Shown one piece after another: positions 6,078 to 22,721 of a DNA stretch of 37,082 nucleotides. How positions within the stretch are numbered: the first letter of the stretch is position 1; each line of letters opens with the position of its first letter. Source of the stretch: Planctomycetota bacterium (GTDB taxonomy: Bacteria > Planctomycetota > GCA-002687715 > DRQF01). The notes under the pieces were generated by a model. It searched no databases and was not told the origin of the DNA. It was given only the letters and a program-made list of their open reading frames with translations. Location of the stretch: positions 1 through 37,082 of the forward strand of contig JAZGFI010000164.1 in NCBI GenBank assembly GCA_036479435.1, given 5' to 3'. The position numbers and the translations under genes are program-made.

Positions 6078-6350
6078 ATGGAAGCTGGGGTCCTTCTGCG
6101 TCGACTTCAAAAGGGGGAAAGGATTGGGATGCCCCACTCAAGGCCGATGCCATCCGTCGGATGGCGTTGCCTTGAGCTACGGATTCCTGACGAGAGGGAG
6201 AGTTGGCGGCTCATCCTTCGACTGGATCTCGATGCGGTTGTCATTGTTGGGGTGTTCAGCAAGAAGACTCGTGAGACGCCCGAGTCCGTCATCCGTGCCT
6301 GTAGAAACCGAATCAAGCGATACGACCAAGTGAGTAAGGAAGATGAATAA
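6078..6350 (+). CDS. RelE/ParE (phage Gp49-like/HigB) toxin, probably N-terminally truncated
   Basis: EAGVLLRRLQKGE..GMPHSRPMPSVG.RCLELRI...WRLI.R.D.DAVVIVGVFSKKTRETP. It overlaps the antitoxin start by 8 bp. The upstream in-frame PVSAEGR is cut by a TAG at 6033. Confidence 0.8.
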   Translation: MEAGVLLRRLQKGERIGMPHSRPMPSVGWRCLELRIPDERESWRLILRLDLDAVVIVGVFSKKTRETPESVIRACRNRIKRYDQVSKEDE

Positions 6351-6663
6351 GCTCAAGATGGAGAAGCTGAGAGCTGCAGGCTGGAAGGTTGGCAACGCAG
6401 GGGACTTTCTTGGACTCAGCCGGGAGGAAACCGCTTTCATTGAGATCAAAGTCGCTCTTGCCCTGAGTCTCAAGCGTCGTCGAATCCGGCGGCATCTTAC
6501 CCAAGTGGATTTGGCAACGTTGCTGAAGTCCAGCCAGTCTCGAGTGGCGAAGATGGAAGCGGCGGACGCTTCGGTGTCGATTGTTTGTTGCTGCGCTCTT
6601 TGCTGGCCCTTGGGGTCACTCCGCGGGGACTTGAGAAAATTCTGTATCCGGCAGCCTGAATAG
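6343..6663 (+). pseudogene. XRE-family HTH antitoxin (HigA-like) with an apparent 1-bp deletion frameshift near 6583
   Basis: LRAAGWKVG...FLGLS.EE...LTQVDLATLLKSSQSRVAKME is the HTH. After SVSI the expected tail LLLRSLLALGVTPRGLEKILYPAA* continues in another frame (6585-6659). Confidence 0.75.
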
Positions 6664-6846: not shown

Positions 6847-8046
6847 TCAGCGGATCTTTTGCGCTTCGTAGACGTGATCGCGCTTTTTCAGGATGCGGAT
6901 CGTCTTGATGCGGAACGGCTTGGCTTTGTTGGTCGGGTCGATGGGTTTGACGCGCGGGACCTTGAGGCCTTCGGGTTCAATGATGCGGCCGAAGACGGTG
7001 TGCTTTTTGTTGAGCCAGTGCGTCGTGGTGCTGGTCACGAAGAATTGGCTTCCGTTGGTGTCGGGGCGGCCGGTGTTGGCCATGCTAAGAGTGCCCGGGT
7101 AGTGGAAGCGCGCGTCGGGGCGAGCGAACTCGTCTTTGACTTTGTAGCCCGGTCCGCCGATGCCGGTGCCCTCGGGGTCACCGCCTTGAATCATGAAGTA
7201 GGCGGTGCAGCGGTGAAACATCAGGCCGTCGTAGAATTTCTTGTTCGCGAGCTCGATGAAGTTGGCCACTGAATTAGGGGCTTGGTCTTCGAATAGTTCG
7301 ACCTTCATCGTGCCGCGGTCGGTGACGATTTCAGCGATGGGATTGGTGTCGGAGTTTTCGCGGAACTTTTGCTCGGCGGCCCACTTTGCGACGTACTCGC
7401 CGGCGATAAGCGTCATCGTTTGCGATTCACGGCGTTTGTCTTTGTCGGAAGCTTTGGCCTGGGAGCGCTGGTAAATGTCGCGCGCCTTGGTGAACTGTTC
7501 GTTGTGCATGTAGGCGTCGCCGAGTGACTTCATGTTGGCGTAACTCACCGCGCGCTCGAGGCCTTTTTCCCACATGCGAACGGCGTCCGCGTACTGGTAG
7601 GCGTTCTCGTAGAACTTAGCGGCTTTGTGAATGAAAGCGCCGTCGGAGGTGATCTCGGCGAGGACTTCGGCGTCTTTGGCCTTGATGGTGGGATTGAGTC
7701 CCGTGAAGACCGTGTCATCTAGACGGCGCACCCGTATCTCTTTGTTCTTGGGGTACTTCGTGATGAAACCGTCGATCTCGGCGACCAGTTCTTTGGCCTG
7801 CTTGACCGCTCGGGCTTTGATCGCTTTGTACTGGCGACTGATGATGTCGCGCTTTTCAACTTCGGCGCCGTTGTAGCGGCTTTGGGTCGCTTGCAAGGAG
7901 CGTTCGTAGTCTCTCAGCTTGCGTTCGAAGCTGTCCCACTTGCTGTTGAGGGCCTTCACTTCGTCGGCCGTCTGGGCGTTCAAGGTGGGCGAAGTCCAAA
8001 GAGCTCCGATGAGCAGCACCAGGGTAAGAGCAGTACGTGAGATCAT
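6847..8046 (-). CDS. Exported cyclophilin-type peptidyl-prolyl isomerase with N-terminal coiled-coil/TPR region
   Basis: Signal peptide (…TLNA-Q) and TPR-like helices, then the cyclophilin motifs FYDGLMFHR, FMIQGGDP.GTG.GGPGY, LSMAN.G.PDTNGSQFF and WLNKKHTVFG. Confidence 0.92.
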   Translation of the reverse strand: MISRTALTLVLLIGALWTSPTLNAQTADEVKALNSKWDSFERKLRDYERSLQATQSRYNGAEVEKRDIISRQYKAIKARAVKQAKELVAEIDGFITKYPKNKEIRVRRLDDTVFTGLNPTIKAKDAEVLAEITSDGAFIHKAAKFYENAYQYADAVRMWEKGLERAVSYANMKSLGDAYMHNEQFTKARDIYQRSQAKASDKDKRRESQTMTLIAGEYVAKWAAEQKFRENSDTNPIAEIVTDRGTMKVELFEDQAPNSVANFIELANKKFYDGLMFHRCTAYFMIQGGDPEGTGIGGPGYKVKDEFARPDARFHYPGTLSMANTGRPDTNGSQFFVTSTTTHWLNKKHTVFGRIIEPEGLKVPRVKPIDPTNKAKPFRIKTIRILKKRDHVYEAQKIR

Positions 8047-8163: not shown

Positions 8164-8203
8164 AAAAAAAAGAGGGCGCGTCGTCGCGAACCCTCTCTTT
8201 TTT
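8164..8203. terminator. Bidirectional intrinsic terminator
   Basis: A-tract, AGAGGGCGCG-TCGT-CGCGAACCCTCT, then T-tract; ~45 bp downstream of the Cys-rich gene stop. Confidence 0.8.
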
Positions 8204-8248: not shown

Positions 8249-9271
8249 TTAGAGCTCTTTGAGAGCGACTTTCTTCACGATCTTAGCTTTGGCGCCATCG
8301 CAGCTACCGCAGCAGCTCTTTTTGGCGGTTTTCGCAACCTTGGTGGCCTTGGAGGCATCGCAGCTGCCGCAGCAGCTTTTGCTGCTCTTTTTGGAAACCT
8401 TGGCGGCTTTGGTGGCGCTGTCACAGCTGCCGCAGCAGCTCTTCTTCGCGCCCTTGGTGGCTACTTTAGTGGCTTTGGTGCCATCGCAACTTCCACAGCT
8501 GCTTTTCGCGGCTTTCTTGGAAACTTTGGCGGCCTTGGCGGCACCGTCGCAGCTACCGCAAGAGCTTTTGGCGCCCTTTTTGGCAACCTTAGTGGCCTTG
8601 GTGGCGCTGTCGCAGCTACCGCAGCAGCTCTTGGCACCCTTGGTGGCTTTTTTGGCTTCGGCGGCCTTGAAGTTCGCGACCATCAGGTCGAGCTTGGTTT
8701 GGCTGGTCTTGCAACCCTTGCAGGCGTTCTCGTAGAGACCGACGACTTTGCCGAGGCCGGGGTTGGCCTTTTCAAGCTTGACGAGTTTCGCCGCGCTGGC
8801 TTTGCAGCCCTTCGCGGAGAACTTCTTGGCGGCCATGTAGGCCTTCATGTTGTCGCAGGGTTGGAATTTCGCGACGGTCTTGGCCTTCGCGGTTTGGCAA
8901 CCTTCGCAGTCTTGGCAGGCACCAGCCGTGGCGCAATCGTCGCAGCAAGGAGCGGCCTTCGCGACCTTTTTGCCCTGCTTGACGTTCACAACCTTGACGA
9001 CTTTGGCCTTGGAAGCGTCGCAGCTGCCGCAGCAACTGCCTTCTTGCTTCTTAGTGACCTTGACGACTTTGGCTTTGGAAGCGTCGCAGCCGCCACAGCA
9101 CTCGTCTTGTTTGGCGACCTTGACGGTCTTAGCTGCGGTGCCGCAGCAGGATTTTTCCTGTTTTTTCGCAACTTTGGCTTCGCCACCGCAGCTGCCGCCA
9201 CAGTCCTGCGCTTGCGCGCTCAGGCCGAAGGCGACGACCAGGGCGAATGCCAGGCTCATCACTTTATTCAT
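8249..9271 (-). CDS. Exported Cys/Lys/Ala-rich tandem-repeat protein (metallothionein-like CCGSCD clusters), function unknown
   Basis: GGAG RBS before MNKVMSLAFALVVAFGLSAQA (Sec signal, AQA cleavage site). 340 aa, ~36 Cys by manual count, followed by its own terminator. Confidence 0.85.
   Translation of the reverse strand: MNKVMSLAFALVVAFGLSAQAQDCGGSCGGEAKVAKKQEKSCCGTAAKTVKVAKQDECCGGCDASKAKVVKVTKKQEGSCCGSCDASKAKVVKVVNVKQGKKVAKAAPCCDDCATAGACQDCEGCQTAKAKTVAKFQPCDNMKAYMAAKKFSAKGCKASAAKLVKLEKANPGLGKVVGLYENACKGCKTSQTKLDLMVANFKAAEAKKATKGAKSCCGSCDSATKATKVAKKGAKSSCGSCDGAAKAAKVSKKAAKSSCGSCDGTKATKVATKGAKKSCCGSCDSATKAAKVSKKSSKSCCGSCDASKATKVAKTAKKSCCGSCDGAKAKIVKKVALKEL
8290..8640 (-). repeat. Six coding tandem repeats of ~63 bp (KS[C/S]CGSCDxxxKAxKVxKKxx)
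   Basis: On the + strand, (G/A)TC(G/A)CA(G/A)CT(A/G/T)CC(G/A)CA recurs every 60-63 nt with synonymous variation between copies. Confidence 0.9.
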
Positions 9272-9504
9272 GGGTTGAGATCTCCGTTCCATATGGTTTT
9301 AGGCTGCGCGAACGTCGCTTTCTGGGCGCTTGGCCGGGCGTTGTTCCCAGCTAGCGAGAGAGGATCGACTAGATTCTCTCCGTCCGACGCATTCTTTATA
9401 CGTACCACCCTACAACACTTTTCGGCCCCAATCGATTCGCCGTTGCCCAGAAAAAAAGAGGCAGGTTTCGCCCTTCGTCAGTCGGCCGGGGGAGCTGGCA
9501 TAAG

Positions 9505-9534: not shown

Positions 9535-10908
9535 CTATCCGACCAGAAAGGCGGGGACCGCCGATCCGCCGCCGGCTGCGACATTAAGGAGCTCATCCTG
9601 GGACAAGCGAACCCCCAATCCCTCCACTTTTAGGCCCCCCAAAACATAGGGAGCGAGGTCAAAGCGGAAGTCTCCTCGTCGCACTTCTCCCGCTTGCTGC
9701 CAGGGACTCGCCAGGGTTTCGAGCGGGATTCGGGCTTGGACGATGAAACGACCCTCGCAGGCCCGATTCCAGGCCGATCGCCATGGTTCCGGCTCGGTAC
9801 GCCAACCCAAAACGACATCGCGCCCCCCGTAGTCAGCGGCGGGTTTCAAGACGAGCTGCTCGGCATTCGCCAGCACGATCGTCTCGAGGTCTTGCAATTC
9901 ACCGCCTCCGTCCGGGGCGGTAGAGCGGGCTCTTTTTTGGGCAATACGGGTCCAGGGGAGGCTGGAAGCCAAAGATTGAAGTTCGGCCGGGGTCAGGTCC
10001 AGCGGTCGGCGCTGAGGATCTGAAAGGTGGGCCAAAAGGCCTTTGTGGGCGAAAAAATAGCCTCCAAAACCGTTGCCGCAAAAGACGCGATCGGCGGCGA
10101 GCGCGTCGAGCAGGGCCTGGGCCATCTTGGGCTCTACGAGCAAGTCGGCGCTTAGTAATCGACGGTAGACCAGATCGACGGGGCGTCCCTTCACTACTAA
10201 GGTCGTACCGTTGAAATGAAGGTCCTCGGGACTAGCAATCTCGACTTCGCATCCCGCCTCACGAAAGGCGGTTTGGAAGAGCCGAAACTCGCCGATGGTC
10301 GGCGCCCCGGCCAGATCCAGGATGAGAACGCGGGGATGTCGGTTCGGAATGACCTTTCGCGCCGCGCACCACTGTCGCCAAGAGTTGAGGTAAGTATTGA
10401 CGACCCGAGGCAACATCTTGCAGCGTGTGAGCCCGAACTCTTTTTGCAACTTTGCGAAGAAGGGAAGGCTCTCAAACAAGTCGCCGAGCGCGTCGCCATA
10501 ACCGAGGCCGCCGGGGCTCTCGCCGTTGTACTCTAGAAAGCGAACGGATCCGTCTTTTTGCAAGATGCCATCGATCCGACCGAAGGTGTCGGGGTGATCG
10601 ACCTGAGCATCTAAGGCGATCAACTCTTCTTCCATCGCCGTGAAGCGGAGATCGGCAAAAGCTGCGGGGTCGGCGCGAAAGTCGCGCCACAAGCGCCCGA
10701 GCGCGGAGCGTAAGAGCTGCGATTCCCGCACCAAGATCTGGTAGGTTTCGCGGGCCAAAAACAGGGGGCGAAGCGCCTGGCAAACCGCTCGGTCCCCGTA
10801 CATCAAACCGCCTTTGCGTTGACCCTTAAGCAGAAAGGCCGCGGCCTTCTCTTTACCGTAGGAGGCTAATTCTTCCTCCCAGCGCCGAATCAGCGCGCTT
10901 TGCGTCAC
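9535..10908 (-). CDS. Circularly permuted ATP-grasp (type 2) amide ligase
   Basis: GRIDG...RFLEYNGESPGGLGY, VDLVYRR, LPWTR, LVLKPAADYGGRDVVLG, FIVQ..I and LLNVAAGGG motifs. Likely GTG start at 10908, 4 bp after the upstream stop. Confidence 0.88.
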   Translation of the reverse strand: MTQSALIRRWEEELASYGKEKAAAFLLKGQRKGGLMYGDRAVCQALRPLFLARETYQILVRESQLLRSALGRLWRDFRADPAAFADLRFTAMEEELIALDAQVDHPDTFGRIDGILQKDGSVRFLEYNGESPGGLGYGDALGDLFESLPFFAKLQKEFGLTRCKMLPRVVNTYLNSWRQWCAARKVIPNRHPRVLILDLAGAPTIGEFRLFQTAFREAGCEVEIASPEDLHFNGTTLVVKGRPVDLVYRRLLSADLLVEPKMAQALLDALAADRVFCGNGFGGYFFAHKGLLAHLSDPQRRPLDLTPAELQSLASSLPWTRIAQKRARSTAPDGGGELQDLETIVLANAEQLVLKPAADYGGRDVVLGWRTEPEPWRSAWNRACEGRFIVQARIPLETLASPWQQAGEVRRGDFRFDLAPYVLGGLKVEGLGVRLSQDELLNVAAGGGSAVPAFLVG

Positions 10909-10912
10909 CGCC

Positions 10913-11842
10913 TCACTTCGCCAAGTAGGAGTTCCAGCGCAGCGGTGACTCCAAGGCTTGCGGATTGTGCGCACGGTCGATCAACAAGTCGGCCAGCTTG
11001 TCGACAGCCCATTCAAACTGATCTTGGAGTAGAGAATTGCGGTCGAGATCCGGTGCTGAATTCATGAAGTCAATGGCGTAGGGAACGCCGTCTTTGACCG
11101 CAAACTCGACGGTGTTCATGTCGTAGCCGAAGGCGTGATTCAGGTCTTGGGCCTGCTTGATGATCTTGTCCATGACTTCGGGGGCGATGTCCGCGCGGGC
11201 CTTGCTGTAGCGTTCGTGGTGGGGGAGCGTCGGGTCCCAGGGAACGGGGTTGATGTGCTCTTTGCCGATGCAGATGCAGCGGACGTACTGATCCCAGTCA
11301 ATGAACTCTTGCAGCATCATGCAGAGGTCCTTGGACTGGTCGTAGGCCTTCATCAACTCGTCCATGTTTTCGACTTTGTCTACGGACTTCCAACCGCCGC
11401 CCCAGTGCGGCTTCAAGATCGCGGGCCAGCCGATCCAATTCGTGAGGCCGTCCCAGTCGAGCGGGTACTTCAGGTTACGAAGGCTTTCGGGCTCGATGCC
11501 TTCCATCGGAGTGTGCTGCGGTAAAGCCACAGTCTTGGGCACCGCGATGCCCAGCTTTTCGACTAGGGCCGTGCCGAAAAACTTGTCATCCGCAAGTTTC
11601 CAAAACGGGTTGTTGATCACCTCGCAGCCGTTCAGGGCTGCGACTTTGAGTGTCGTTTGGTAGTAGTTCACCTCGTGCGAGATCCGATCGAGGATCACCG
11701 CGTAGGGCAAGATCATCGAATGCGGTGTTCCTTCCAGCTCGACCATCTCGGCCACGCAGCCGGCGTCACGAGAGTTGATGGCCTCAATCAAGGCTTCGGG
11801 GAAGCTCGTTTCTTGACCAACGAGGATGCCGATTTTCTTCAT
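10913..11842 (-). CDS. RimK/glutathione-synthetase-like ATP-grasp protein
   Basis: MKKIGILVGQE.SFP, ILDRISHE, INNPFW..ADDKFF, PKT, LKPHWGGGWK, MLQEFI and YDMNTVEFAVKDGVPYAIDFMN motifs; GAGG RBS. Confidence 0.9.
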   Translation of the reverse strand: MKKIGILVGQETSFPEALIEAINSRDAGCVAEMVELEGTPHSMILPYAVILDRISHEVNYYQTTLKVAALNGCEVINNPFWKLADDKFFGTALVEKLGIAVPKTVALPQHTPMEGIEPESLRNLKYPLDWDGLTNWIGWPAILKPHWGGGWKSVDKVENMDELMKAYDQSKDLCMMLQEFIDWDQYVRCICIGKEHINPVPWDPTLPHHERYSKARADIAPEVMDKIIKQAQDLNHAFGYDMNTVEFAVKDGVPYAIDFMNSAPDLDRNSLLQDQFEWAVDKLADLLIDRAHNPQALESPLRWNSYLAK

Positions 11843-12073: not shown

Positions 12074-13063
12074 GTGGAGTTTTCGATCCAAGCCATCAAC
12101 GACAAAGTCGCCGCGGAAAGCGCTTTTGTCGCCAGTGTCAAAACCGAATTGGCGAAGGTCATTGTCGGTCAAGAGGCCATGGTCCAAGGTCTTTTGGTGG
12201 GACTATTGACTAATGGGCATGTGCTTTTGGAGGGCGTGCCCGGGCTGGCCAAGACCCTCACCGTCTCGTCTTTGGCCCGCACCCTCGGCGTCGAGTTTCG
12301 CAGGATTCAGTTTACGCCAGATCTTTTGCCCGGCGACATCGTGGGCACCTTGATCTACAACCCCAAAGATGGCGAGTTCAAAGTCCGCAAGGGCCCGGTG
12401 TTCGCGAACATCGTGTTGGCCGATGAGGTCAACCGCGCTCCGGCCAAAGTACAAAGTGCGCTGTTGGAAGCGATGCAGGAACGCCAAGTTACCATCGGCG
12501 ACGAGACCTTTCCCTTGCCGCTGCCCTTTTTGGTTCTGGCGACTCAAAACCCCATCGAACAAGAGGGCACCTACCCATTGCCTGAGGCTCAAGTCGACCG
12601 CTTCATGTTGAAGTTAAAGATCGGCTATCCAGAGAAAAAAGACGAACGTCGAATCCTGGATTTGATGGCGACCACCGAGACCCCGAAAAGTTGCAGCCCC
12701 GTAGTGAGCGGCGAGGATATTCTCCGCGCGCGAAAAGTTGTCAATGAGATCTACATCGACGACAAGATCAAAGACTACATCGTCGAACTTGTCTTCGCGA
12801 CACGTGACCCCGAGGCCGCGGGCTTGGACATCAAACACCTGCTTGAGTACGGCGCTTCGCCGCGCGCGACGATCGCGCTGACACTGGCGTCGAAAGCACA
12901 TGCGTTTTTGGCGGGCCGCGGCTTCGTCACGCCGCAGGACGTCAAAGACATTGCGCCGGATGTGCTGCGCCATCGTTTGATCATCTCCTACGAAGCGGAG
13001 GCCGAAGAGATGACTTCGGATGACCTGATCCAAAAAGTGTTGGATCAAGTAGAGGTTCCTTAA
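12074..13063 (+). CDS. moxR: MoxR-family AAA+ ATPase
   Basis: Walker A GVPGLAKT, RIQFTPDLLP, Walker B LADEVNRAPAKVQSALLEAMQE, ATQNPIEQEGTYPLPEAQVDRF and GASPRA. Confidence 0.97.
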   Translation: MEFSIQAINDKVAAESAFVASVKTELAKVIVGQEAMVQGLLVGLLTNGHVLLEGVPGLAKTLTVSSLARTLGVEFRRIQFTPDLLPGDIVGTLIYNPKDGEFKVRKGPVFANIVLADEVNRAPAKVQSALLEAMQERQVTIGDETFPLPLPFLVLATQNPIEQEGTYPLPEAQVDRFMLKLKIGYPEKKDERRILDLMATTETPKSCSPVVSGEDILRARKVVNEIYIDDKIKDYIVELVFATRDPEAAGLDIKHLLEYGASPRATIALTLASKAHAFLAGRGFVTPQDVKDIAPDVLRHRLIISYEAEAEEMTSDDLIQKVLDQVEVP

Positions 13064-13066
13064 GCC

Positions 13067-13945
13067 GTGATTCCCAAGGAAATCTTGGACAAGGTTCGCC
13101 GGATTCAAATCCTGACGAGCCGCATGGTCACGGACACGATGGCCGGTCACTATCACTCGGTCTTCAAAGGCCGCGGGATGGAGTTCGCTGAAGTGCGCCC
13201 CTACCAAGCCGGCGACGACGTGAGGCATATTGACTGGAATGTCACGGCGCGAACCGGCGAAGCTTTCGTCAAGGAGTTCGTCGAAGAGCGTGAGCTTACG
13301 GTGATGATTCTCTTTGACGCATCACGTTCGCTGGATATCGGGAGCAAGGGCAAGACCAAGCGCGAGATCGCCGCTGAACTCGGAGCGGTGCTGGCTTTCA
13401 CTGCGGTTTCCAACAACGACAAAGTCGGCCTCATCATTTTCAGCGACGAGATCGAGCTCTTTGTCCCGCCCAAAAAGGGAAAAAAGCATGTCCTGCGCGT
13501 GATCCGTGAACTACTCGCGCACGAAGTCCGCGGCCACGGCACCGACATCAAGATGGCACTCGAGTATTTGAGTCGCGTCAACAAGCGTAAGACGGTGGCT
13601 TTTTTGATCTCGGATTTCTTAGACCAAGGTTACGAGCGCGATCTCGCCATCGTCAACCGTCGTCACGATCTTGTGGCGCTCTCGATCGGAGATCCAACCG
13701 AGGAACGTATCGAACGAATCCCCGCGATCTTGGACTTGCTAGATCCAGAAACCGGGCAGCGCGCCGTGGTTGATGGTCGCTCTGGAGCCTTCCTTAACCG
13801 TTACGCCGAAGACAGTCGCCGCGACCGCCGAGACCGCAAGGATCTCTTTCGAAAGCGCGGCATCGACCTCGTAGAGATGCGCTCTGACAAAGATTATGTG
13901 CAACCGCTCATGAACTATTTTCGCGAAAGAGAGAAACGACTGTGA
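13067..13945 (+). CDS. DUF58 family VWA-like protein
   Basis: GRGMEFAEVRPYQAGDDVRHIDWNVTAR, DASRS and LISDF motifs; directly follows moxR. Confidence 0.95.
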   Translation: MIPKEILDKVRRIQILTSRMVTDTMAGHYHSVFKGRGMEFAEVRPYQAGDDVRHIDWNVTARTGEAFVKEFVEERELTVMILFDASRSLDIGSKGKTKREIAAELGAVLAFTAVSNNDKVGLIIFSDEIELFVPPKKGKKHVLRVIRELLAHEVRGHGTDIKMALEYLSRVNKRKTVAFLISDFLDQGYERDLAIVNRRHDLVALSIGDPTEERIERIPAILDLLDPETGQRAVVDGRSGAFLNRYAEDSRRDRRDRKDLFRKRGIDLVEMRSDKDYVQPLMNYFREREKRL

Positions 13946-15213
13946 AGCTACCAGCGCTTGTCTCCGGCGCCATCTTATTGGCTGCGAGTTTGATATTGCT
14001 GGGCACGGCTTGCCAGCCGGAAGACGCCGCCTCGAACATTGGCGCCACCGCCGGCCAAGCGTTTGCACCTTCGGCCTGGAATCTTGAGAAACGCCGCGCC
14101 TGGGCTGCGAATCTTCGGGCCGAGGGCCTCGATGACCGCGCGGCCATCGCCTACGAAGCTTTGTTGTCAGAGTCGGGTCTCAGCGAGAATCTCGTTACTG
14201 GTATCTCGATAACTCTGGCCGAGATGCACCTGGCCAAAGGGCGTCACGACCAGGCCCTCGGCGCGGTTTTGCGCGCGAAGCTCTACGACTTGCCGCCAGC
14301 GCGGCGTCGCCGAGCCGACGAGATTGCTATTCAGTGCTTTGAGAGCCTGGGGCGCAGTGCGGCGGCGGATCGCTTGCTCGACAGGGCGAGCCGCCTGGGC
14401 CGAGATTCGAACCCGGCGAGCTCTGAGAGTGGGGTGGTTTTGGCGGAGATTGGCGACGAGGTGATTACCCTTTCGGATCTTGAGGGCTTAATCGCCATGA
14501 TGCCGCCTTCGAACGCGAAGCAGCTCGAAGCCCCGGGGGCTAAGTTTGAACTTCTAAAGAGCTTGGTCGCCCAGAAAGTCATGGTCCGAAAGGCCAGAAA
14601 ACTCGGCTACGACCAAGACGACAAAGTACAGCTTGCCCTCGACATGGCGCGGCGCGAAGTCTTGGTGAAAAAAGTCGTGGCGGAAGAGGTTCGGCAACGC
14701 GTCCAAATGAAACCAGAGGAAGTAGAGCTCTACTATCGCGCTCACCCTGAGGTTTTTCGGACCCCTTCTCGCGCTGAAGTCGACCACATCTTTGTGGCGA
14801 CAAAGGAGGACGCAGACGCCGCACGCGCTAGGCTCAAAGCCGGCGAGGACTTCTCGGCGCTCGCGAAAGAACTGAGCCAAGATCCTGGGACGGCTGCGAA
14901 AGGCGGGCGCATCGAAACCGCCCTCGTCGAAGGGCAAGCGCATGAGGTATTCGTTCGCCCTGAAGATGTCTTTGCGCAGTGCAGGGATCTTGAGCCTGGC
15001 GCGGTCGCGGCGAGCGATGTGGTCAGTGCCAAGGGCCGGCATCTCATTCGCCTGCGGTCTTTTAACGCCGGCAAAGCGGTTCCTTTTGAACAGTGCAAAG
15101 AAGATGTCGAACGAATCCTCCGCTCCGAGCGCGAGCAGCGGGCGATGCAGCGCCTCCTTGTGGAGTCTTTGACCGGCGCCGATATCAAAATCCACGAGGA
15201 CCGGCTGCCGTGA
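13942..15213 (+). CDS. PpiC/parvulin-type (SurA/PrsA-like) foldase lipoprotein with an N-terminal TPR-like region
   Basis: Lipobox LGTAC; SurA-N-like VLAEIGDEVIT...ARKLGYD; rotamase motifs HIFV...LKAGEDFSALAKELSQDPGTAAKGG and G.HLIRL. GTGA overlaps on both sides. Confidence 0.85.
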   Translation: MKLPALVSGAILLAASLILLGTACQPEDAASNIGATAGQAFAPSAWNLEKRRAWAANLRAEGLDDRAAIAYEALLSESGLSENLVTGISITLAEMHLAKGRHDQALGAVLRAKLYDLPPARRRRADEIAIQCFESLGRSAAADRLLDRASRLGRDSNPASSESGVVLAEIGDEVITLSDLEGLIAMMPPSNAKQLEAPGAKFELLKSLVAQKVMVRKARKLGYDQDDKVQLALDMARREVLVKKVVAEEVRQRVQMKPEEVELYYRAHPEVFRTPSRAEVDHIFVATKEDADAARARLKAGEDFSALAKELSQDPGTAAKGGRIETALVEGQAHEVFVRPEDVFAQCRDLEPGAVAASDVVSAKGRHLIRLRSFNAGKAVPFEQCKEDVERILRSEREQRAMQRLLVESLTGADIKIHEDRLP

Positions 15214-16277
15214 TTTCAGTCTGGCAATCGCGTTTGCTGGTCATCGGCTTGCCGCTGATGCTCGGAGCCTTGTTTCTGGGCGCCTGTTCCGAGGAAGGTC
15301 AGCGCCCCGAATCCAAGCGCGAATCGACAAAATCATCTGGACGCGGCGGCGAGGTCGCGTCGGGGCAGCCGGTCGTGGTATTGGCCAAGGTCGACAAGGC
15401 TCGGGTCGAGGTCGGAGAAAAAGTCATCTACCGCGTCGAGGTGCGTTTTTCGCCCGATGTGAAAGTTGAATTTCCGTCCGTACTCCATCAGTTTGCGAAT
15501 TGGTTGGTGCACGACGTCGGTTCTTGGCGCAGCGAAGCCGATTTCGGCACCAAGAAAGTCAAGGCCATCGAAGTGGTTCTCGATCCAGGCATCGGCCCCG
15601 TCCTTTCGATTCCGCCGACGAATATTCGCTGGCGCTACCCGGACGACGATGCCTGGGAAGTGTTGGCGACCGAAGCGATCACGGTTGAGATTGCAGCGAC
15701 AAGCAGCGAGGAATTGGACTTTCGCGAACCTATCGTCGGATTCAGTCTCCCTCAGCCAGCGCCAAGCGATCGAGAGAAGCCCCAGGGTTTGATTGCGATC
15801 TTGGCGCTGGGCATCGCGGGGCTCTTGGGTCTGTTGTGCTTCGTCATCTTTCGAAACAAAAAGAAGAAGGTCATCGTCTTGCCACCCCCGCATTTCGTGG
15901 CGACCCAAGAGCTGGACGCCTTGGAGGGGGCAGGTCTCGCACGAGCGGGGAAAGTGAAAGAGTACTACTACCGGCTCACTGGTATTCTTCGGCGCTACAT
16001 CGAAGCTCAATTTGGTGTCGCCGCCACCGACCAGACCACGGAGGAGTTTCTGGATGCAATGCGTCGCGGCGACGAACTCCCCGAGGGTCAGAAATCCGTC
16101 TTGCAGGAGTTCTTGACCCAGGCCGACATGGTCAAGTATGCGAAGCATCAACCCGAAGCCGCGGAATCAGATGCAGCCCTGACCGTGGCTCGACGCTTTG
16201 TCGAACTCACGCGCAGCTCTGCCGACGGATTAGACCCCTCAAACTCAGCTAGTAAGGCAACGGCCCATGCGCTTTGA
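15210..16277 (+). CDS. Bat-operon accessory membrane lipoprotein (BatD-like Ig domain, TM helix, DUF4381-like tail)
   Basis: GTG start overlaps the upstream TGA; lipobox LGAC; TM helix; C-terminal KEYYYRLTGILRRYIE...TTEEFL...ADMVKYAK. Confidence 0.82.
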   Translation: MISVWQSRLLVIGLPLMLGALFLGACSEEGQRPESKRESTKSSGRGGEVASGQPVVVLAKVDKARVEVGEKVIYRVEVRFSPDVKVEFPSVLHQFANWLVHDVGSWRSEADFGTKKVKAIEVVLDPGIGPVLSIPPTNIRWRYPDDDAWEVLATEAITVEIAATSSEELDFREPIVGFSLPQPAPSDREKPQGLIAILALGIAGLLGLLCFVIFRNKKKKVIVLPPPHFVATQELDALEGAGLARAGKVKEYYYRLTGILRRYIEAQFGVAATDQTTEEFLDAMRRGDELPEGQKSVLQEFLTQADMVKYAKHQPEAAESDAALTVARRFVELTRSSADGLDPSNSASKATAHAL

Positions 16278-17349
16278 ACATCCCCTTTGGTTGTTGGCAA
16301 GCGCCTTGGTCGCGGCGGGCCTCGGGGTGGTGGCGATCTTTCGTCAGACGGGCCGCTGGCCGCAGCCGGCCATCTTGTTCGCCAACATCCGCGCTGTTCT
16401 CGGCCGGCCGAATAGTTGGCGATTGATCTGTTCTGAATGGCAGTGGATCTTGCGCGTCCTGGCCTTGCTCTTGGTCATCATGGCCTTGGCGCGGCCGCAG
16501 AAGGGGCGGAGCGACTCGGTCGTGACGAGCGAGGGCATCGACATCATGATGCTCGTAGACACTTCCAGTTCGATGGCCGGAGAAGACTTCGGTGGTGACA
16601 TGACGCGGCTCGATCACGTGACAGAGGTGATGCGTGAATTTGCTGAGGCGCGTCCCGCCGATCGCATCGGGCTCGTTAGTTTCGGAATGTCGGCCTACAC
16701 GCGCTGCCCACTCACATTAGACCATGCGCTTTTGGACGGATTCTTCGAGTTCGTGCAGACCTCTTGGCACCGAGCCTACGAATCGCTGCGCAAAAAGCAG
16801 GCGCGCCAGGGCCGGGCCGACGAATCCAATCTTACCCCCGATGAGATGGACCTGATGGGGACGGCCATTGGCGACGCCCTCGTAACGGCCGTGGGGCGGC
16901 TTGAGAAATCTGATTCGAAAAGCAAGGTTATCGTTCTGCTGACCGATGGCGAGAACACCGCCGGTGAAACCAAGCCCCTGGACGGTGCGGCCATCGCCAA
17001 GGAGTTCGGGATCAAGGTCTACACCGTGGGGGCGGGCTCGGACGGCGCGGCCCCGGTCACGGTCTACGACCGACTCGGTCGCCGTCGCAAACAATACATG
17101 CGCGCCAATCTCGATGAAGTCACCTTGCAAGCCATCGCCGACGAGACGGGCGGGATTTTCTTTCACGCCAATACACGCGACCGCCTGGAAGAAGTCTACG
17201 ACGAGATCAATCGCCTTGAGCGCGGCGAGATCAAGACAAAGGACTATCGCGAATGGGATGAGCTGTTTGCGCCCTTCGCCTTAGCTGCGCTGGTGCTCAT
17301 CGTGCTAGACCGTCTACTCGCGGCAACCTGGTTGAGGAGGTTGCCATGA
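16267..17349 (+). CDS. batA: BatA-like VWA domain membrane protein
   Basis: MRFEHP.WL N-terminus, ALARPQ, MIDAS DTSSS, GTAIGDAL, LLTDGENT, IKVYTVG and a C-terminal TM helix. Confidence 0.9.
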   Translation: MRFEHPLWLLASALVAAGLGVVAIFRQTGRWPQPAILFANIRAVLGRPNSWRLICSEWQWILRVLALLLVIMALARPQKGRSDSVVTSEGIDIMMLVDTSSSMAGEDFGGDMTRLDHVTEVMREFAEARPADRIGLVSFGMSAYTRCPLTLDHALLDGFFEFVQTSWHRAYESLRKKQARQGRADESNLTPDEMDLMGTAIGDALVTAVGRLEKSDSKSKVIVLLTDGENTAGETKPLDGAAIAKEFGIKVYTVGAGSDGAAPVTVYDRLGRRRKQYMRANLDEVTLQAIADETGGIFFHANTRDRLEEVYDEINRLERGEIKTKDYREWDELFAPFALAALVLIVLDRLLAATWLRRLP

Positions 17350-18386
17350 ACGATTGGTTCGGAGAACCCGAGCGTCTGTGGCTGATCTTGGTGCCGCTTG
17401 CCCTTTTTGCCCTGTTCTTGTGGGACCGCCGTCGTCGCAGAGCTCTCCTCGACGAATTGGTGTCGGCGCGCCTGTTCGATGGCATGGTGGTAGGTCGCTC
17501 GCGGGCGCGGCGGCGTTGGCGTTTGATTCTCGTATTGATCGCGGTCTTGTTCATTGTCATTGCCCTCATGCGTCCGCAGTGGGGCAACCGAAACGTCGAG
17601 TTGACGCGCAAGGGGATCGACATCGTCTTTGCGATCGATGTTTCTAGAAGCATGCTCGCTCGCGACGTGAAGCCCAATCGAGTTGAGCGTGTGAAGCTGG
17701 ACGTCCGGTACTTTGTTCATGAGGTTGTTGAAGAGGACCGCATCGCTTTGGTCGCCTTCGCTGGCACCGCGCGCACTCTATGTCCCTTGACTCTCGATTT
17801 GGGTGCCTTTGAAGTGTTTTTGGACGAGCTGGATATCGGCAGCATCTCAAGAGGTGGAACAAACATGGCGTCCGCTTTGGCGGCGGCCTTGGATACTTTT
17901 GGCGATGACGAAAAGAACCACAAAGCCATCATCTTGTTTACTGACGGCGAGGGCCACGACCCCTTGCCTGATGATGAACTCAAGCTGGCGCTGAAGCGCG
18001 GCGTTCGGATTTACACCATCGGCATCGGCTCCGACGAGGGAGTTCGGATTCCTCTCGAAGGCGAGGATGGCGGCACAACTTGGCTAAAAGACCACAAGGG
18101 CAACATCGTGCTGACGCGCTTGGACGACAAGCGCCTGAAGACCATCGCACAGCGGAGTCTCGACGGGGCCTACACTCACCTTTCGGGGGGCAGAGGTAAC
18201 CTGGAGCGGATCTACGCTGACAACATTCGTAAGATCGAAGAGCGCGAGCTAAAAAGCCGTCGCCAGTACCGAAGGGTAGATCGTTTTCAAATCTTCCTCG
18301 TCATCGCTGGGCTGTTTTTGGGGCTGGCCTACTTCATGCCCGAGGGGCGCCGACTGCCCGCGCGGTTTACTGGAGATCAAGCATGA
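17346..18386 (+). CDS. batB: BatB-like VWA domain membrane protein
   Basis: ALMRPQWG, MIDAS DVSRSMLARDVKPNR, PLTLD, LFTDGE and IYTIGIG motifs. Confidence 0.9.
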   Translation: MNDWFGEPERLWLILVPLALFALFLWDRRRRRALLDELVSARLFDGMVVGRSRARRRWRLILVLIAVLFIVIALMRPQWGNRNVELTRKGIDIVFAIDVSRSMLARDVKPNRVERVKLDVRYFVHEVVEEDRIALVAFAGTARTLCPLTLDLGAFEVFLDELDIGSISRGGTNMASALAAALDTFGDDEKNHKAIILFTDGEGHDPLPDDELKLALKRGVRIYTIGIGSDEGVRIPLEGEDGGTTWLKDHKGNIVLTRLDDKRLKTIAQRSLDGAYTHLSGGRGNLERIYADNIRKIEERELKSRRQYRRVDRFQIFLVIAGLFLGLAYFMPEGRRLPARFTGDQA

Positions 18387-20122
18387 GAAGTTGCGGTATC
18401 TTGGTGCGACTTGTGCTGCTGATCTTGTCGACGACAAGTCTGGTGTCGAGTGCGACGTTCGCGGCGACTGTCAATTCCGACGAAGCGAGAAAACTCACTC
18501 GCGAGGGTCTGGCGCTTTTGAAGCAGGACAACTTCGATGGCGCCCTGACCAAGTTTCGCGACGCTCAAGTCGAAACACCCGAGTCCTCCGAGCTCCACTA
18601 CAACATCGGCCTTTGCCTTTACCGCCTCGAACGCTACGACGAAGCGGCGCAGGCTTTTGAGAGTGCCACCTTTAGTCCCAAAAAGGCCATCGAGAAGGCT
18701 AGCCTCCTGCAACTCGGAAATTGTGCGGTCAAAGAGGGCAAGCTCGAAGATGCTCTAAAGCACTATGACCGCGCCTTGTTGTTGGACGAAAAATTTGAAG
18801 ACGCCACTGTCAACCGAGCTTGGGTCGTTCGCAAGGTCGAGGAGCTAAGCCGCAAGAAAAAAGACCAAGAAGAAAAGCAAAAACAGCAACGGCGCTACAT
18901 CGAGAAACTGCAGGAAATCATCAAAAAGCAAACCATGGCTCACGCAGGGGTTCGGTTTTTGATGCGCCGGCAGGGGATGGAGCTTCCCGCAACGCGCGTG
19001 ACCTTACTGGCCGACCAGCTCAATATGCCCCCTTTGTCTGACGACGAACGTGCGGAGCCAGCGCCGACGCCGGAGGAGCGGTCGAAGTTCAGCGAAGGGC
19101 TTATCGCGGCCCAGGCCGACATCTTGGCGCTTAGCAAACAGCTCGTGGCTGAGGGTCAACAGCGCATCGCCGAACCCCAACAAAGCGATCAGGATCTTGA
19201 GGCGATCAAAAAGGCGGTACCGATCTTAGAAGGTGCCTTGCCGATCCTCGAACGCGCCCTGGAGCAGGCCAAGGGCGCCGACGAAGCGCTTCTCCACGCC
19301 GGGCAAGAAGAGGCCTTGATCCAACTATTGCGGGCGCTGAATGAACTTCTCGACGAGCTCACCCGTCTTATTCAAGATCAAGTACAGTTGCTTAAGACCA
19401 GCTCGAGCACGCTCGCGACAGAGCAATCAGAGGGCGCAGAGTCAAAGCCAGATCCGGCAGACTTACGTGGCTGGGGCATTGAACAGGCGAGCATACAGGC
19501 AGGCTTGCGTTCGCGTACACAATCGATCAGCGGACAAGTGGAATCGCAGGTCAAGGCCCTTCAACAGCAAGCAAGTAAGCCGGGCACAGCTCCCGAGGCG
19601 GGGCAGGATCCAAACGAGCAGCGCCGTCGTTTTCAAAAGGCACTCGGACATCTTCTCGCCGCGAGCACGGCGATGGAGGATGTCGATGCGGACCTGAAAG
19701 TCCCTTCTTTCGATGCCGCGGTGAAGGGCGAGAAGAAAGCGTTGGAGGAACTCGTCAAAGCGCGCGCCGCGCTGCAGCCTCCGCAGCAGTCGGGGCAGGA
19801 CGGCGAGAAAAAAGACCAAGACAAAAAGTCCGACGACAAGAAGCAGGATCAGGAAAAAAAAGACGAAAAGTCCGCTGACAAAAAGGACGGCGACCCCGAA
19901 GACCAGCCGCAAGACCAGCAGCCCAAATCTGAAGACAAGCCCGATGATCAAGGGAAGTCCGGAGAAAAAGAGGAGAAGCAAGAAGCTCGTCAGATCTCCA
20001 AAGAGCAGGCCAAAAAGATGCTCGAACGCGCGCGGCAAAACGAGCGAGACCGGCGCAAGAAAGACAAGAAGAAGGCCCGCAAGGTTCCCGCTCGTGGCGG
20101 CCGTCCGGCGAGGGATTGGTAG
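18383..20122 (+). CDS. Extended BatC-like TPR protein
   Basis: Signal peptide, TPRs (HYNIGLCLY, LGNCAVKEG..EDAL.HY), a long helical middle, a Q/D/K-rich linker and the BatC-type ending ISKEQAKKML...RDW. Confidence 0.82.
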   Translation: MRSCGILVRLVLLILSTTSLVSSATFAATVNSDEARKLTREGLALLKQDNFDGALTKFRDAQVETPESSELHYNIGLCLYRLERYDEAAQAFESATFSPKKAIEKASLLQLGNCAVKEGKLEDALKHYDRALLLDEKFEDATVNRAWVVRKVEELSRKKKDQEEKQKQQRRYIEKLQEIIKKQTMAHAGVRFLMRRQGMELPATRVTLLADQLNMPPLSDDERAEPAPTPEERSKFSEGLIAAQADILALSKQLVAEGQQRIAEPQQSDQDLEAIKKAVPILEGALPILERALEQAKGADEALLHAGQEEALIQLLRALNELLDELTRLIQDQVQLLKTSSSTLATEQSEGAESKPDPADLRGWGIEQASIQAGLRSRTQSISGQVESQVKALQQQASKPGTAPEAGQDPNEQRRRFQKALGHLLAASTAMEDVDADLKVPSFDAAVKGEKKALEELVKARAALQPPQQSGQDGEKKDQDKKSDDKKQDQEKKDEKSADKKDGDPEDQPQDQQPKSEDKPDDQGKSGEKEEKQEARQISKEQAKKMLERARQNERDRRKKDKKKARKVPARGGRPARDW

Positions 20123-21978
20123 TCGTGGCCTCAACGAAGTACATCTTGGCCTTAGGCGCCCTCATCTTGCTTTTGGGGTCGGTACCGTTAGTTGCCCAAG
20201 ACCTGAAAGTGCGCGTTGGCATGGAGCCTCAGCAGCCGGTGTTCGGCGAGGCCATCATCTTTGGCATTATTGTCACGCGAACGGCCAAGACGCCTTTTGA
20301 AGGCGGTGCGCCAGCAGAGGTCAAGATTCCGGACGGCGACGGCTACAAGCTCAAGTATCGCGAAACGCGCACGGGAAAAAGCACGCGAGGCTCAACCATC
20401 TTTGGCGGTCGCCGCAGCACTTACTATGAGGATTCTTGGACCCTCGTCTACGACCTTGTTCCCGAGCGTACCGGCGTCATTCAGATGCCGCCTTTTAGTT
20501 TTCAGATGCTCGGGAAGCCTCAGCGTGTTGGCAGCTTGACTTTCGAAGTTCTTAGCGAGGCGCCTGGCAATCGCTACGCGACGCTAGAGGTTTCGGCGAG
20601 CAACACCAGCCCCTACGTCAATCAGCCGGTCAAGCTAAGACTGGTCATCACCAGCGAAAAACCCACGGTTGATGTCAAAGTCAACCTGCCCTGGTCAAGC
20701 AACCCCAATGGCTTCAGCGGCCCGATTACGGCAGTCGGTTGGACCCAGGGACGCGGTGTCGCGGTGCAGCTCAACGGCGAGCGATTTGATTTTCAGCAAG
20801 AAGCGAATCCCGCAGTGCGTGGCGGTGAGCGTTTGGTGTACGAGCGCGTGGTTTATCCCATTGCCCCCGGTCGCGTCGAGCTTGCCCCGGCGAATTTGCA
20901 CATGGACGTAGCCCTGCGAATGGGGCGGGGAGTCTTTGGGCGGAGGCAGGTCCGAGAGTCGGCTAAAGTCGTGCTGGTCTCGCAACCTTTGGTGCTAGAA
21001 GTTCGCGATGCGCCGATCACCGGTCGGCCCCAACCTTTTACTGGAATCCTTGGCAATTTTAGCGGGCTGGTGCAGTTGGGTTCGACTTCGATCAAGGCGG
21101 GCGACGGGTTTACGCTGAGCTTGCAACTCGAAGGCGCGGGCGAGCTGGCTTCGCTGACGCCGCCTGACATTGCCGCCGCGCGCGGTTTCGAAAACTTCGA
21201 CGTCTACGCCCCCGACAAGACCATTGAGCCTGGGGCAAGAAAAGGTGACCAGCGGCTCACGATATCGTGGCTCATAGTCCCTAAGCTCGAGGCTAAGCTC
21301 GAGACTTTCCCGCGCTGGGAGTTTTCTTGGTTCAAGCCCTCGACGGAGACCTTCGAGACGGTCTCCGTCGGGCCAACGCCCATCGAAATCAAAGGAAGAG
21401 TCAGCGACGACGGGATCTTTGGCGGGGCGAGCAATGCCCGCGAAGCGCGGGAAATCATGACCTTGGGCGAAGGCCTGCGGCCGATCAAAGAGCTCCCCGA
21501 GGGACTGAGCGAACTGGCGCCCCGCGTGCCTTGGGCGGTGTTTTTGAGCGCCTTGATCCTTCCGGCTTTGCTTTTTGGCATCTCGACCCTTTTCCTGCGC
21601 CGCCGAGAAAACCTCGCGGGCGATGTGGCCCTCCAACGCCGCCGTCGGGCGTCGAAAGAGGCCACGGCCCGGCTGCAAGAAGCGCGGGAGCACATGAGTT
21701 CAGAACGCGGTTTTCATGGCAAGCTGGCGCGCAGTGTCACCGGGTTCCTCGGAGACAAGTTGGATTTGCCGCCGGCGCGGATCGCCGCGGCGACCGTTCG
21801 AGACTTGGTTCAGCAGGCGGGGGTGAGCGCGCAGCGCGGAGACGAATTGGCCACCTTGCTTCAAGACCTTGAGTCAAAAGAGTTCGGGGGTGGCGGGGCT
21901 AGTGCCGCCGAACGGCAGTCGGACTTTGACCGCGCCGAAGTTCTCATTCGAGCTCTCGACCGTGAGATCAAACGATGA
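20116..21978 (+). CDS. batD: BatD-like protein
   Basis: Signal peptide, repeated beta-rich domains (PYVNQPV, FTGILGNF, FSWFKP), a TM helix and a helical tail; position in the bat operon. Confidence 0.82.
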   Translation: MVVVASTKYILALGALILLLGSVPLVAQDLKVRVGMEPQQPVFGEAIIFGIIVTRTAKTPFEGGAPAEVKIPDGDGYKLKYRETRTGKSTRGSTIFGGRRSTYYEDSWTLVYDLVPERTGVIQMPPFSFQMLGKPQRVGSLTFEVLSEAPGNRYATLEVSASNTSPYVNQPVKLRLVITSEKPTVDVKVNLPWSSNPNGFSGPITAVGWTQGRGVAVQLNGERFDFQQEANPAVRGGERLVYERVVYPIAPGRVELAPANLHMDVALRMGRGVFGRRQVRESAKVVLVSQPLVLEVRDAPITGRPQPFTGILGNFSGLVQLGSTSIKAGDGFTLSLQLEGAGELASLTPPDIAAARGFENFDVYAPDKTIEPGARKGDQRLTISWLIVPKLEAKLETFPRWEFSWFKPSTETFETVSVGPTPIEIKGRVSDDGIFGGASNAREAREIMTLGEGLRPIKELPEGLSELAPRVPWAVFLSALILPALLFGISTLFLRRRENLAGDVALQRRRRASKEATARLQEAREHMSSERGFHGKLARSVTGFLGDKLDLPPARIAAATVRDLVQQAGVSAQRGDELATLLQDLESKEFGGGGASAAERQSDFDRAEVLIRALDREIKR

Positions 21979-22721
21979 TGCGCGTACTTGGGATTTTTGT
22001 TCTCGTTGCGATCTGGACGCCATGGGCAGGGGCGCAGGTCGAGGCCGAGCGTGCCTTCCACCGTGGCTCTGAGCTCTTCGACAAGGGTGACTTTGCTGCC
22101 GCCGCGAAGGCTTGGGAGGAAGCTCTCGCCGCCGACGCGGGAGGTCCCACGCTTCACTTTAACCTCGGCACGGCATACCTGAGGTTGGGTCGCAATGGCC
22201 CCGCCCTTCACCAACTCCTCGTTGCCGAACGTTTCGATCCGCGTGATGAAGATATCACGACCAACTTGGCGCTAGCGCGCAAAAGGCTCGGACGTTCCAG
22301 TCTGGATGACCGGCCGACCTTCATCCGCACCCTGTTGTGGCTCCACGAAAAGACCACTCCTAAAGAAGCTCTCTCGCTGTTCGCCGTACTGTGGTTCGTC
22401 GCCTTCGCCCTGTTGATCTTGCGACGCGCCTTTGGCCGTCCGCAAACTTTGGGGCTCGCGATGTCGCTCATCGCCTTGGGCCTAATCCTCGCGTTTTCGC
22501 TCTGCGCGCGACACTTTGCGTGGTGGTCTCCTACGCAGGCGGTCGTCCTCCAAAACGCCACCGCTTTCACCGGCCCCTCTGAAACCACCTATCAACCCCA
22601 CTTCAAACTCCCCGAAGGCGCCGAGGTCGAAGTGCTCGAATCCAAAGATACTTGGCTGAAAGTCAAAGCCGGAGACCAACAGGGCTTCCTCCCCGCCTCC
22701 CAACTTGGCCTCATCCCCTAA
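21975..22721 (+). CDS. batE: BatE-like TPR + TM + SH3 protein
   Basis: LHFNLGTAY...PRDEDI..NL, two TM helices and an SH3b-like FKLPEGAEVEVLE....WLKV....QGFLP. Confidence 0.85.
   Translation: MMRVLGIFVLVAIWTPWAGAQVEAERAFHRGSELFDKGDFAAAAKAWEEALAADAGGPTLHFNLGTAYLRLGRNGPALHQLLVAERFDPRDEDITTNLALARKRLGRSSLDDRPTFIRTLLWLHEKTTPKEALSLFAVLWFVAFALLILRRAFGRPQTLGLAMSLIALGLILAFSLCARHFAWWSPTQAVVLQNATAFTGPSETTYQPHFKLPEGAEVEVLESKDTWLKVKAGDQQGFLPASQLGLIP

Follow-up and report, generated by a model that had tools for sequence, protein, structure and literature searches.

A conserved, predicted exported cysteine- and lysine-rich protein with an uncatalogued, putatively helical module in a family of Planctomycetota

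The window analysed here, a stretch of 37,082 nucleotides from a Planctomycetota bacterium (assembly GCA_036479435.1, contig JAZGFI010000164.1), carries a gene for a 340-residue protein (P0001) that is rich in cysteine and lysine and predicted to be exported (Table 1). The stretch is matched with zero differences by contigs from three runs of one sample, possibly its source. The protein contains 36 Cys (10.6%), 70 Lys and 61 Ala, only two Tyr and no Trp, His or Arg, for a net charge of +46; a preliminary description made from the sequence had counted about 36 Cys and recorded the high Lys content and the absence of Trp and His, to which that of Arg can now be added. The histone-like character proposed at the same time is one of composition only. 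The protein has the top Cys fraction among the 3,793 genes called in its own genome, in which no paralogue was found. A second ORF in this genome (G000, C123:2058-2732, + strand; 224 aa, 10.3% Cys) is non-exported by the signal rule used.

Table 1. Features of the gene, its product and its neighbours, in window coordinates.
Feature	Position	Strand	Basis or remark
Gene for 340-aa Cys/Lys-rich predicted exported protein (P0001)	8249..9271	-	ORF; orthologues in 9/9 family genomes
Predicted Sec/SPI signal peptide, aa 1-21, cleavage AQA↓QDC	9209..9271	-	A↓QDC invariant in 8 aligned orthologues
N-terminal Cys/Lys arm, aa 22-135, 16 Cys	8867..9208	-	CxxxC, CC, CCxxC and CxxCxxC clusters; without L/I/M/F/Y/W
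Conserved module, aa 136-199	8675..8866	-	Four predicted helices, two helix-Gly-Cys-helix turns
C-terminal arm, aa 200-340, 16 Cys, 35 Lys	8252..8674	-	Six KS(C/S)CGSCD repeats, Lys/Ala/Val/Thr spacers
Ribosome-binding site GGAG	9282..9285	-	Sequence; 10 nt 5' of ATG
Intrinsic terminator-like GC-rich hairpin, T8 tail, preceded by A tract	8164..8203	-	RNA fold
Weak terminator-like hairpin and T run, between ATP-grasp pair and gene	9459..9473	-	Pattern match only
RimK-like ATP-grasp	10913-11842	-	Fixed upstream neighbour in family
Circularly permuted ATP-grasp	9535-10908	-	Fixed upstream neighbour in family
Cyclophilin-type PPIase, hydrophobic N-terminus	6847..8046	-	PF00160; fixed downstream neighbour

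The signal peptide, judged by sequence and orthologue alignment, was borne out as a prediction, and neither a twin-Arg motif nor a lipobox was found in it; nor did the protein as a whole yield a lipobox or other envelope anchor. All orthologues open with a signal peptide of 20–21 aa and A↓QDC, and because every one of them starts in this way an alternative ATG upstream, at 9292, is disfavoured. The gene has its own ribosome-binding site and terminator-like hairpin, as had been described; the pattern scan did not pick up this hairpin, and a strong hairpin lies 3' of the gene in all eight family members with downstream DNA. The weak hairpin on the other side suggests that the gene may be transcribed separately from the ATP-grasp pair. 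No sigma-70 promoter was found by pattern scan. A codon-bias score at the 98th percentile depended on an unverified set of reference genes; when 19 recognisable genes for ribosomal proteins serve as reference, the gene falls to the 28th percentile (z -1.1), flagellin-, pilin- and EF-Tu-like genes standing at the top of the same ranking, and we therefore do not claim high expression. Run X4 was likewise set aside as expression evidence: its coverage is uneven, but two of its four loose ends finish in GATC, which would fit a DNA library made by proximity ligation.

The surroundings of the gene are fixed within the family. The ATP-grasp pair adjoins it upstream in 8/8 relatives and the cyclophilin gene downstream in seven, the contig ending in the eighth. 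The circularly permuted ATP-grasp is present in 22 of 23 genomes of the class, often with a second copy, and no Cys/Lys-rich gene lies within 1.5 kb of it at the 9 non-family loci inspected; the ATP-grasp neighbours therefore probably represent synteny only, at family level, and a functional link to them was rejected. Neither the 9 family loci nor the 9 distant loci show a recurring metal-homeostasis gene next to the Cys-rich gene, and no regulator was found. The nine distant loci share no neighbour theme (42 of 57 candidate frames scanned), methyltransferase, TerC and TrkH genes occurring once each. The cyclophilin has a long helical, weakly TPR-like N-terminal half. Elsewhere in the window, a MoxR-DUF58-BatA/B/D-type operon whose third gene encodes a parvulin (Rotamase) (12074-22721, +) is divergent from the ATP-grasp genes in 6/8 relatives, and a Gp49/RelE-like gene followed by an HTH gene (6078-6663, +) forms a probable toxin-antitoxin pair. 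Biomineralisation, raised earlier as a possible role, gained no support; a magnetosome link was dropped, magnetochrome having matched 0/5 genomes with the control likewise silent.

Within the C-terminal arm, the repeats of 20–21 aa that had been noticed begin at aa 214, 235, 256, 277, 298 and 318 (spacing 21, 21, 21, 21 and 20). Two related copies in the N-terminal arm bring the matches of [CS]CG[SG]CD in the protein to 8, and two or more such matches occurred in 0 of 20,000 shuffled versions. Over the 8 core codons, the six copies differ pairwise by 45 synonymous and 8 non-synonymous changes, and 49 of 59 base differences in the cores fall at codon position 3; the spacers are far less constrained (50 synonymous versus 90 non-synonymous over 20 codons in five copies). 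This pattern agrees with the earlier suggestion and points to selection on the repeat cores at the protein level. The CC/CCxxC clusters reported for the N-terminal part are present (16 Cys in aa 22–135), and the arms together carry 32 Cys in clusters spaced 15–19 residues apart. Among orthologues the arms differ freely in length and Cys pattern (C, CC, CxxC, CxxxC, CCxxC). The N-terminal arm is likely disordered; the Atlas model of the whole protein has a pLDDT of 0.48. Sequence comparison thus presents the repeats as the variable part of the protein and the central helical module as its defining conserved part.

The preliminary description placed a region of about 75 aa with spaced Cys between the arms. 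Its Cys are present, but the region spans about 64 aa and is a conserved, predicted folded module. Of its 4 Cys, C156 and C187 are invariant and C139 and C184 nearly so; mean column identity is 73% over 10 modules, and pN is below pS in 4/4 genome pairs. The module is predicted as four helices with a pLDDT of 86.8. The model of a distant relative has eight helices in two modules, with 141 residues above 90 and tails of pLDDT <50. Turn units are spaced 31 aa apart in this protein and 36–37 aa in distant members. Among 203 units from 43 proteins, seeded from Cys-bearing units and scored with the post-Gly column masked, Cys follows the turn Gly in 91%, and D, S or N in the rest. Co-loss of the two turn Cys within a module was seen in none of 64 modules; they are therefore not an obligate pair, and an obligate disulfide between them was rejected. 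The second turn Cys is weakly linked to a loop Cys (p 0.012), and adjacent units show an overall co-loss at p 0.002, both values being uncorrected and drawn from few related proteins.

Orthologues were found by genome search in 8/8 genomes of the host's Planctomycetota family and in 0/32 others, and the module profile matched 9/9 family genomes and 0/14 other genomes of the class, the family genomes being 81–92% complete and mutually related. The orthologues measure 331–598 aa, with one relative of 197 aa, and carry 1–4 modules, the number varying in frame. One orthologue (G001; L009/L023) is broken by an N run within the repeats, which is an assembly gap and not a broken gene, and the copy in G007 ends at a contig end. 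The whole protein matched no family in Pfam or NCBIfam, and phmmer with the whole protein found no match in a set of 5.8 billion proteins, in line with its earlier description as an uncharacterised polycationic, Cys-rich, predicted exported protein; it can now be called a conserved one. The phmmer search came back empty because the repeats mask the family, which was recovered by the module profile.

This profile, built on the central region, retrieved 15 proteins, mostly secreted. The secreted relatives have about 4–8 helix-Gly-Cys-helix units (about 2–4 modules) with a 36–37-aa period and Cys-rich tails on both sides, and the family module profile matched the profile of the wider family with a probability of 97% and an E value of 5.5e-11. 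A profile from 13 relatives, run against 1.84 billion proteins, yielded 33 representatives (clustered at 50% identity) at E<=1e-30, 45 at 1e-10 and 101 at 0.001. The 45 include one unrelated repeat protein, and about 45 representatives fall within the domain; among the weaker matches are fragments, Sel1 and HEAT proteins, members of a second secreted family with short units, and noise. In a sample of the phylum, 14 of 301 genomes matched: 3 from the host family, 9 strongly from three other families, and 2 weakly (G166 and G196), which on inspection were dropped as outside the family. Three known carriers escaped this profile, so the count of 9 among 295 non-family genomes is a minimum. A tree of 60 modules, built on few columns, sets the 14 family modules apart from the rest by a well-supported branch, and copies from the same protein often cluster together.

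Other repeat proteins came to light in these searches. The second, mostly secreted family (100–220 aa) is built of shorter helix-Gly-Cys-helix units, in many of which the turn is a conserved GCEHS (Cys-x-His); its members are P0052, P0057, P0061–P0063, P0074, P0075, P0081, P0082, P0084, P0086, P0096, P0105 and P0108, with no Pfam family in P0082 and P0108 (scanned) or in P0062. P0067, P0107 and P0109 contain related GCP(H/M)A repeats. A 1666-aa frame in G196 (C65; L045/L048) carries many Cys-free AAAGD helix-turn-helix repeats like the turn motif of the family.

Fold searches with the models of the module and of the relative gave no significant match in Foldseek, and the best VIA hits (Z 5.0 and 5.2) were unrelated helical chains. 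A PDB sequence search with the module returned a single match at E 0.75. In the ESM Atlas the whole protein met three unnamed clusters at 0.80–0.83, below the reliable range, with no structure match of TM >=0.5 by query, and the helical core of the relative gave no usable match. The lack of a significant fold match shows neither a new nor a different fold. Searches of the open literature listed no description of the family. We conclude that this is a real, undescribed protein family with a new small domain; the module is an uncatalogued domain with a confident predicted model and no structural match found in these searches.

Profile searches with positive controls detected DsbB in 0/9 and VKOR in 0/9 family genomes; DSBA was found in one of the nine but not in the host's own, where Thioredoxin_4 was not found either and DsbD is present with its N-terminal and membrane domains. 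VKOR occurs in 6/7 distant carriers tested, and the wider family therefore lives where disulfides can form. An excess of even Cys counts accompanies DsbA and DsbB/VKOR (PMC12453122, in the part available). In a test that used a home-made gene caller and a heuristic signal rule, without a positive-control genome, predicted exported proteins of the host genome had 149 even versus 214 odd counts and cytoplasmic ones 816 versus 1032 (p 0.30); a strict exported rule gave 29 versus 39, and predicted lipoproteins showed a slight even excess (36 versus 29, p 0.04–0.08). The mature Cys count is odd in 7 of 8 complete family proteins (p 0.07) and in 18 of 37 distant proteins, one of which has a wrongly placed start, and odd counts are also compatible with inter-chain disulfides. 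In family proteins 8 of 11 His adjoin Cys (1.7 expected), often where other copies have CC, although this amounts to about three events in two genera; in distant members the figure is 0/38 (5.1 expected). Heme-copper oxidase genes are present in 5/5 genomes tested. Two MraY-family genes are also present, so peptidoglycan is probably made.

From these sequence data we tentatively prefer a role in the envelope in which the exported protein would take up soft metals (Cu(I), Zn(II), Cd(II)) like a multivalent sponge of thiolates and would also buffer thiol redox. The chain would be exported by Sec, unfolded and metal-free, as its signal peptide suggests, and the central module would fold into its four predicted helices, one Cys capping each of the two Gly-Cys turns. 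With DsbD encoded and neither DsbB nor VKOR detected, the thiols would stay largely reduced. The CC/CxxC clusters of the arms, which vary freely in number, could then bind metal additively, which with every Cys engaged and four sulfurs per ion would allow about 9 Zn(II), and the Lys-rich spacers may lower the thiol pKa and retain the protein on anionic envelope polymers. Freely varying Cys clusters, odd Cys counts, His beside Cys, non-obligate turn Cys, heme-copper oxidases and the top Cys fraction all lend this reading some weight, short of making it probable. Counting against it are the lack of recurring metal genes nearby and of any regulator found, VKOR in distant carriers, the few events behind the His signal, the even excess among lipoproteins, the heuristic nature of the even-Cys test, the incomplete and related genomes, the low Cys density (11%), the 15–19 residues between clusters, and odd counts that would also fit inter-chain disulfides.

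The protein had been called metallothionein-like. The metal-binding or thiol-buffer option raised along with that name fits the absence of DsbA, DsbB and VKOR matches from the host genome; membership of the family does not hold up, given its size, 11% Cys, predicted export, free Cys patterns and helical core. The metallothioneins SmtA/BmtA and MymT are small and cytosolic, SmtA having a zinc-finger core and SmtB control (PMC3323870 and PMC7558416, in the excerpts available). Our protein shares with them Cys-rich CC/CxxC clusters, few aromatics, probably unstructured arms and the proposed thiolate metal binding. However, it has 340 aa, a signal peptide, long Lys spacers and a predicted helical module, and no metallothionein profile or BmtA zinc-finger core was matched in Pfam or NCBIfam; family membership thus fails on size, predicted export and profile match. 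Csp1, a Tat-exported protein whose Cys line the core of a four-helix bundle (PMC7558416), is an exported helical Cys-thiolate store for Cu(I), and so a precedent for exported thiol metal storage. Our protein differs from Csp1 in its Sec-type signal without twin-Arg, and from Csp3 in having a signal at all; its arms carry most of the Cys, leaving only 4 to the module. No Csp protein appeared among the sequence matches or the listed fold matches.

We regard it as slightly less likely that the protein is structural, its chains joined by disulfides that O2 or some non-canonical oxidase would make, into a polycationic mesh in the envelope that would be unrelated to YTV proteins, OmcB and CagY but like them in function. 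Chlamydial OmcA/B are exported, Cys-rich envelope proteins. A single gene at a fixed locus in 9/9 family genomes, repeat and module numbers that vary in frame (1–4 modules), odd Cys counts that leave thiols free for cross-links, and VKOR in 6/7 distant carriers tested are all in keeping with such a mesh. Known examples of comparable design are the Cys-rich wall proteins of the phylum (PMC8567305, PMC12673574) and the middle repeat of Helicobacter pylori CagY, a Lys/Cys-rich helical repeat that varies in number in frame and belongs to a protein of disulfide-dependent assembly (PMC2581425, as far as these sources were available). The planctomycete YTV cell-wall proteins (PF07639) come from the same phylum and are exported, Cys-rich and repetitive, but our protein has no YTV motif and its lineage no detected Dsb oxidation pathway. 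The available parts of PMC8567305 and PMC12673574 report YTV only in Planctomycetales/Planctomycetia. A search for YTV genes in the host lineage matched 0/5 genomes, but the control matched nowhere either. YTV identity was rejected for want of a PF07639 match, and kinship with the planctomycete Cys-rich wall proteins, the comparison drawn at the outset, is not supported. CagY, a membrane-linked component of a type IV secretion machinery (PMC2581425, in the part available), gave no sequence match and serves as an analogy only. No DsbB or VKOR in the family, no even-Cys bias in the host genome, codon usage at the 28th percentile, unlike that of abundant proteins, the probable presence of peptidoglycan and the lack of a lipobox or other anchor speak against a mesh. 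No DsbB or VKOR in the family, together with DsbD and no even-Cys bias, leads us to favour the reduced-thiol buffer over the disulfide scaffold.

It is improbable, in our view, that the module derives from Sel1 repeats, its Cys being mainly helix caps, and that the protein is a scaffold for proteins or polyanions whose Lys arms bind LPS, polysaccharide, polyphosphate or extracellular DNA. The turn motif does resemble the Sel1 cap, KAAxxGxxxAxxxL, the family profile draws Sel1 proteins from E 3e-10 downward, and a PDB profile search matches cyclin F (0.0026), EsiB (0.13) and a SEL-1 repeat protein (0.22). Sel1-like repeat proteins (PF08238; HcpB/HcpC, EsiB) also share with the family the 36–37-aa helix-turn-helix period of its distant members, an A-x-x-G turn, export and, in Hcp, Cys; replacement of the turn Cys by D, S or N, typical N-cap residues, fits capping, and the net charge of +15 to +45 in family proteins fits polyanion binding. 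However, 91% Cys exceeds what capping needs, the net charge of distant members runs from -9 to +31, so that charge is not conserved whereas Cys is, and the 32 Cys of the arms are left unexplained. The family lacks the aromatic consensus, places Cys right after the turn Gly, and is modelled as separate four-helix modules instead of a matching solenoid. Against Sel1 solenoids Foldseek gives the models E>2 and an rmsd of about 15 Å, so that they do not superimpose, and the likeness is therefore one of a local turn motif. PF08238 matched 0/10 family modules and 0/13 distant members, and identity as an SLR protein (compare PMC3851747, available in part) was rejected for the members scanned.

Least probable is a giant stand-alone precursor of bufferin or oxazolin type, in which an MNIO encoded elsewhere would turn Cys into copper-binding heterocycles. 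Bufferin-2 and EGKCG/oxazolin precursors (NF050166; MNIO PF05114) likewise combine a Sec signal with Lys/Cys/Gly-rich repeats of variable number, PF05114 matches occur in 9/9 family genomes, and, in the available parts of the sources, bufferins have a periplasmic copper role (PMC11626156, PMC12452194) and long, stand-alone precursors exist (PMC12452194). The gene stands beside an MNIO in 0/9 family loci, yet since stand-alone precursors exist this leaves room for modification in trans. Our protein has no partner gene, different motifs without EGKCG, and an extra helical module. Seven relatives with bufferin-type MNIO have their own precursors directly upstream, of which 2/3 tested match the BufA2 model at E 1e-9 to 1e-11 (below its cut-off), whereas 8 family proteins give no BufA2 match at E 0.1, and the host genome has only a distant MNIO (81 bits versus a cut-off of 310). 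Bufferin precursor identity thus fails on the NF050166/EGKCG and adjacency features. The distant MNIO gene (C24; L103:584-2316) appears to share an operon with an aminotransferase-like gene and a gene of unknown kind, and no Cys-rich precursor is evident there. In relatives, MNIO clusters of the bufferin type contain two precursor genes in tandem (L091:2397-3278, L092, L093, L095 and L097; G006, G008, G001, G005 and G002); the leaders of these precursors read KRRDF/NRRDF and finish on a lipobox-like Cys.

To our knowledge, the metal sponges of bacteria that use free thiols stay in the cytosol (metallothioneins, Csp3), leave it folded through Tat (Csp1) or are chemically modified (bufferins). 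We consider it unlikely, though worth stating, that the protein represents a new class, in which exported, unmodified, metallothionein-like reduced thiolates in an envelope free of Dsb oxidase would combine with a Cys-capped four-helix module, metal-bridged chains forming an envelope network. If the preferred metal and thiol-redox buffer is right, bacteria would have a further way of handling metals in the envelope, by Sec export of a chain with 36 unmodified Cys, which is plausible where thiols stay unoxidised in the periplasm. Should the protein be a cross-linked scaffold, planctomycete lineages beyond the YTV carriers would have a Cys-rich envelope protein of a second, unrelated kind, which would bear on the long dispute over planctomycete walls. 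On either reading, the family defines an uncatalogued domain with about 45 representatives at 50% identity.
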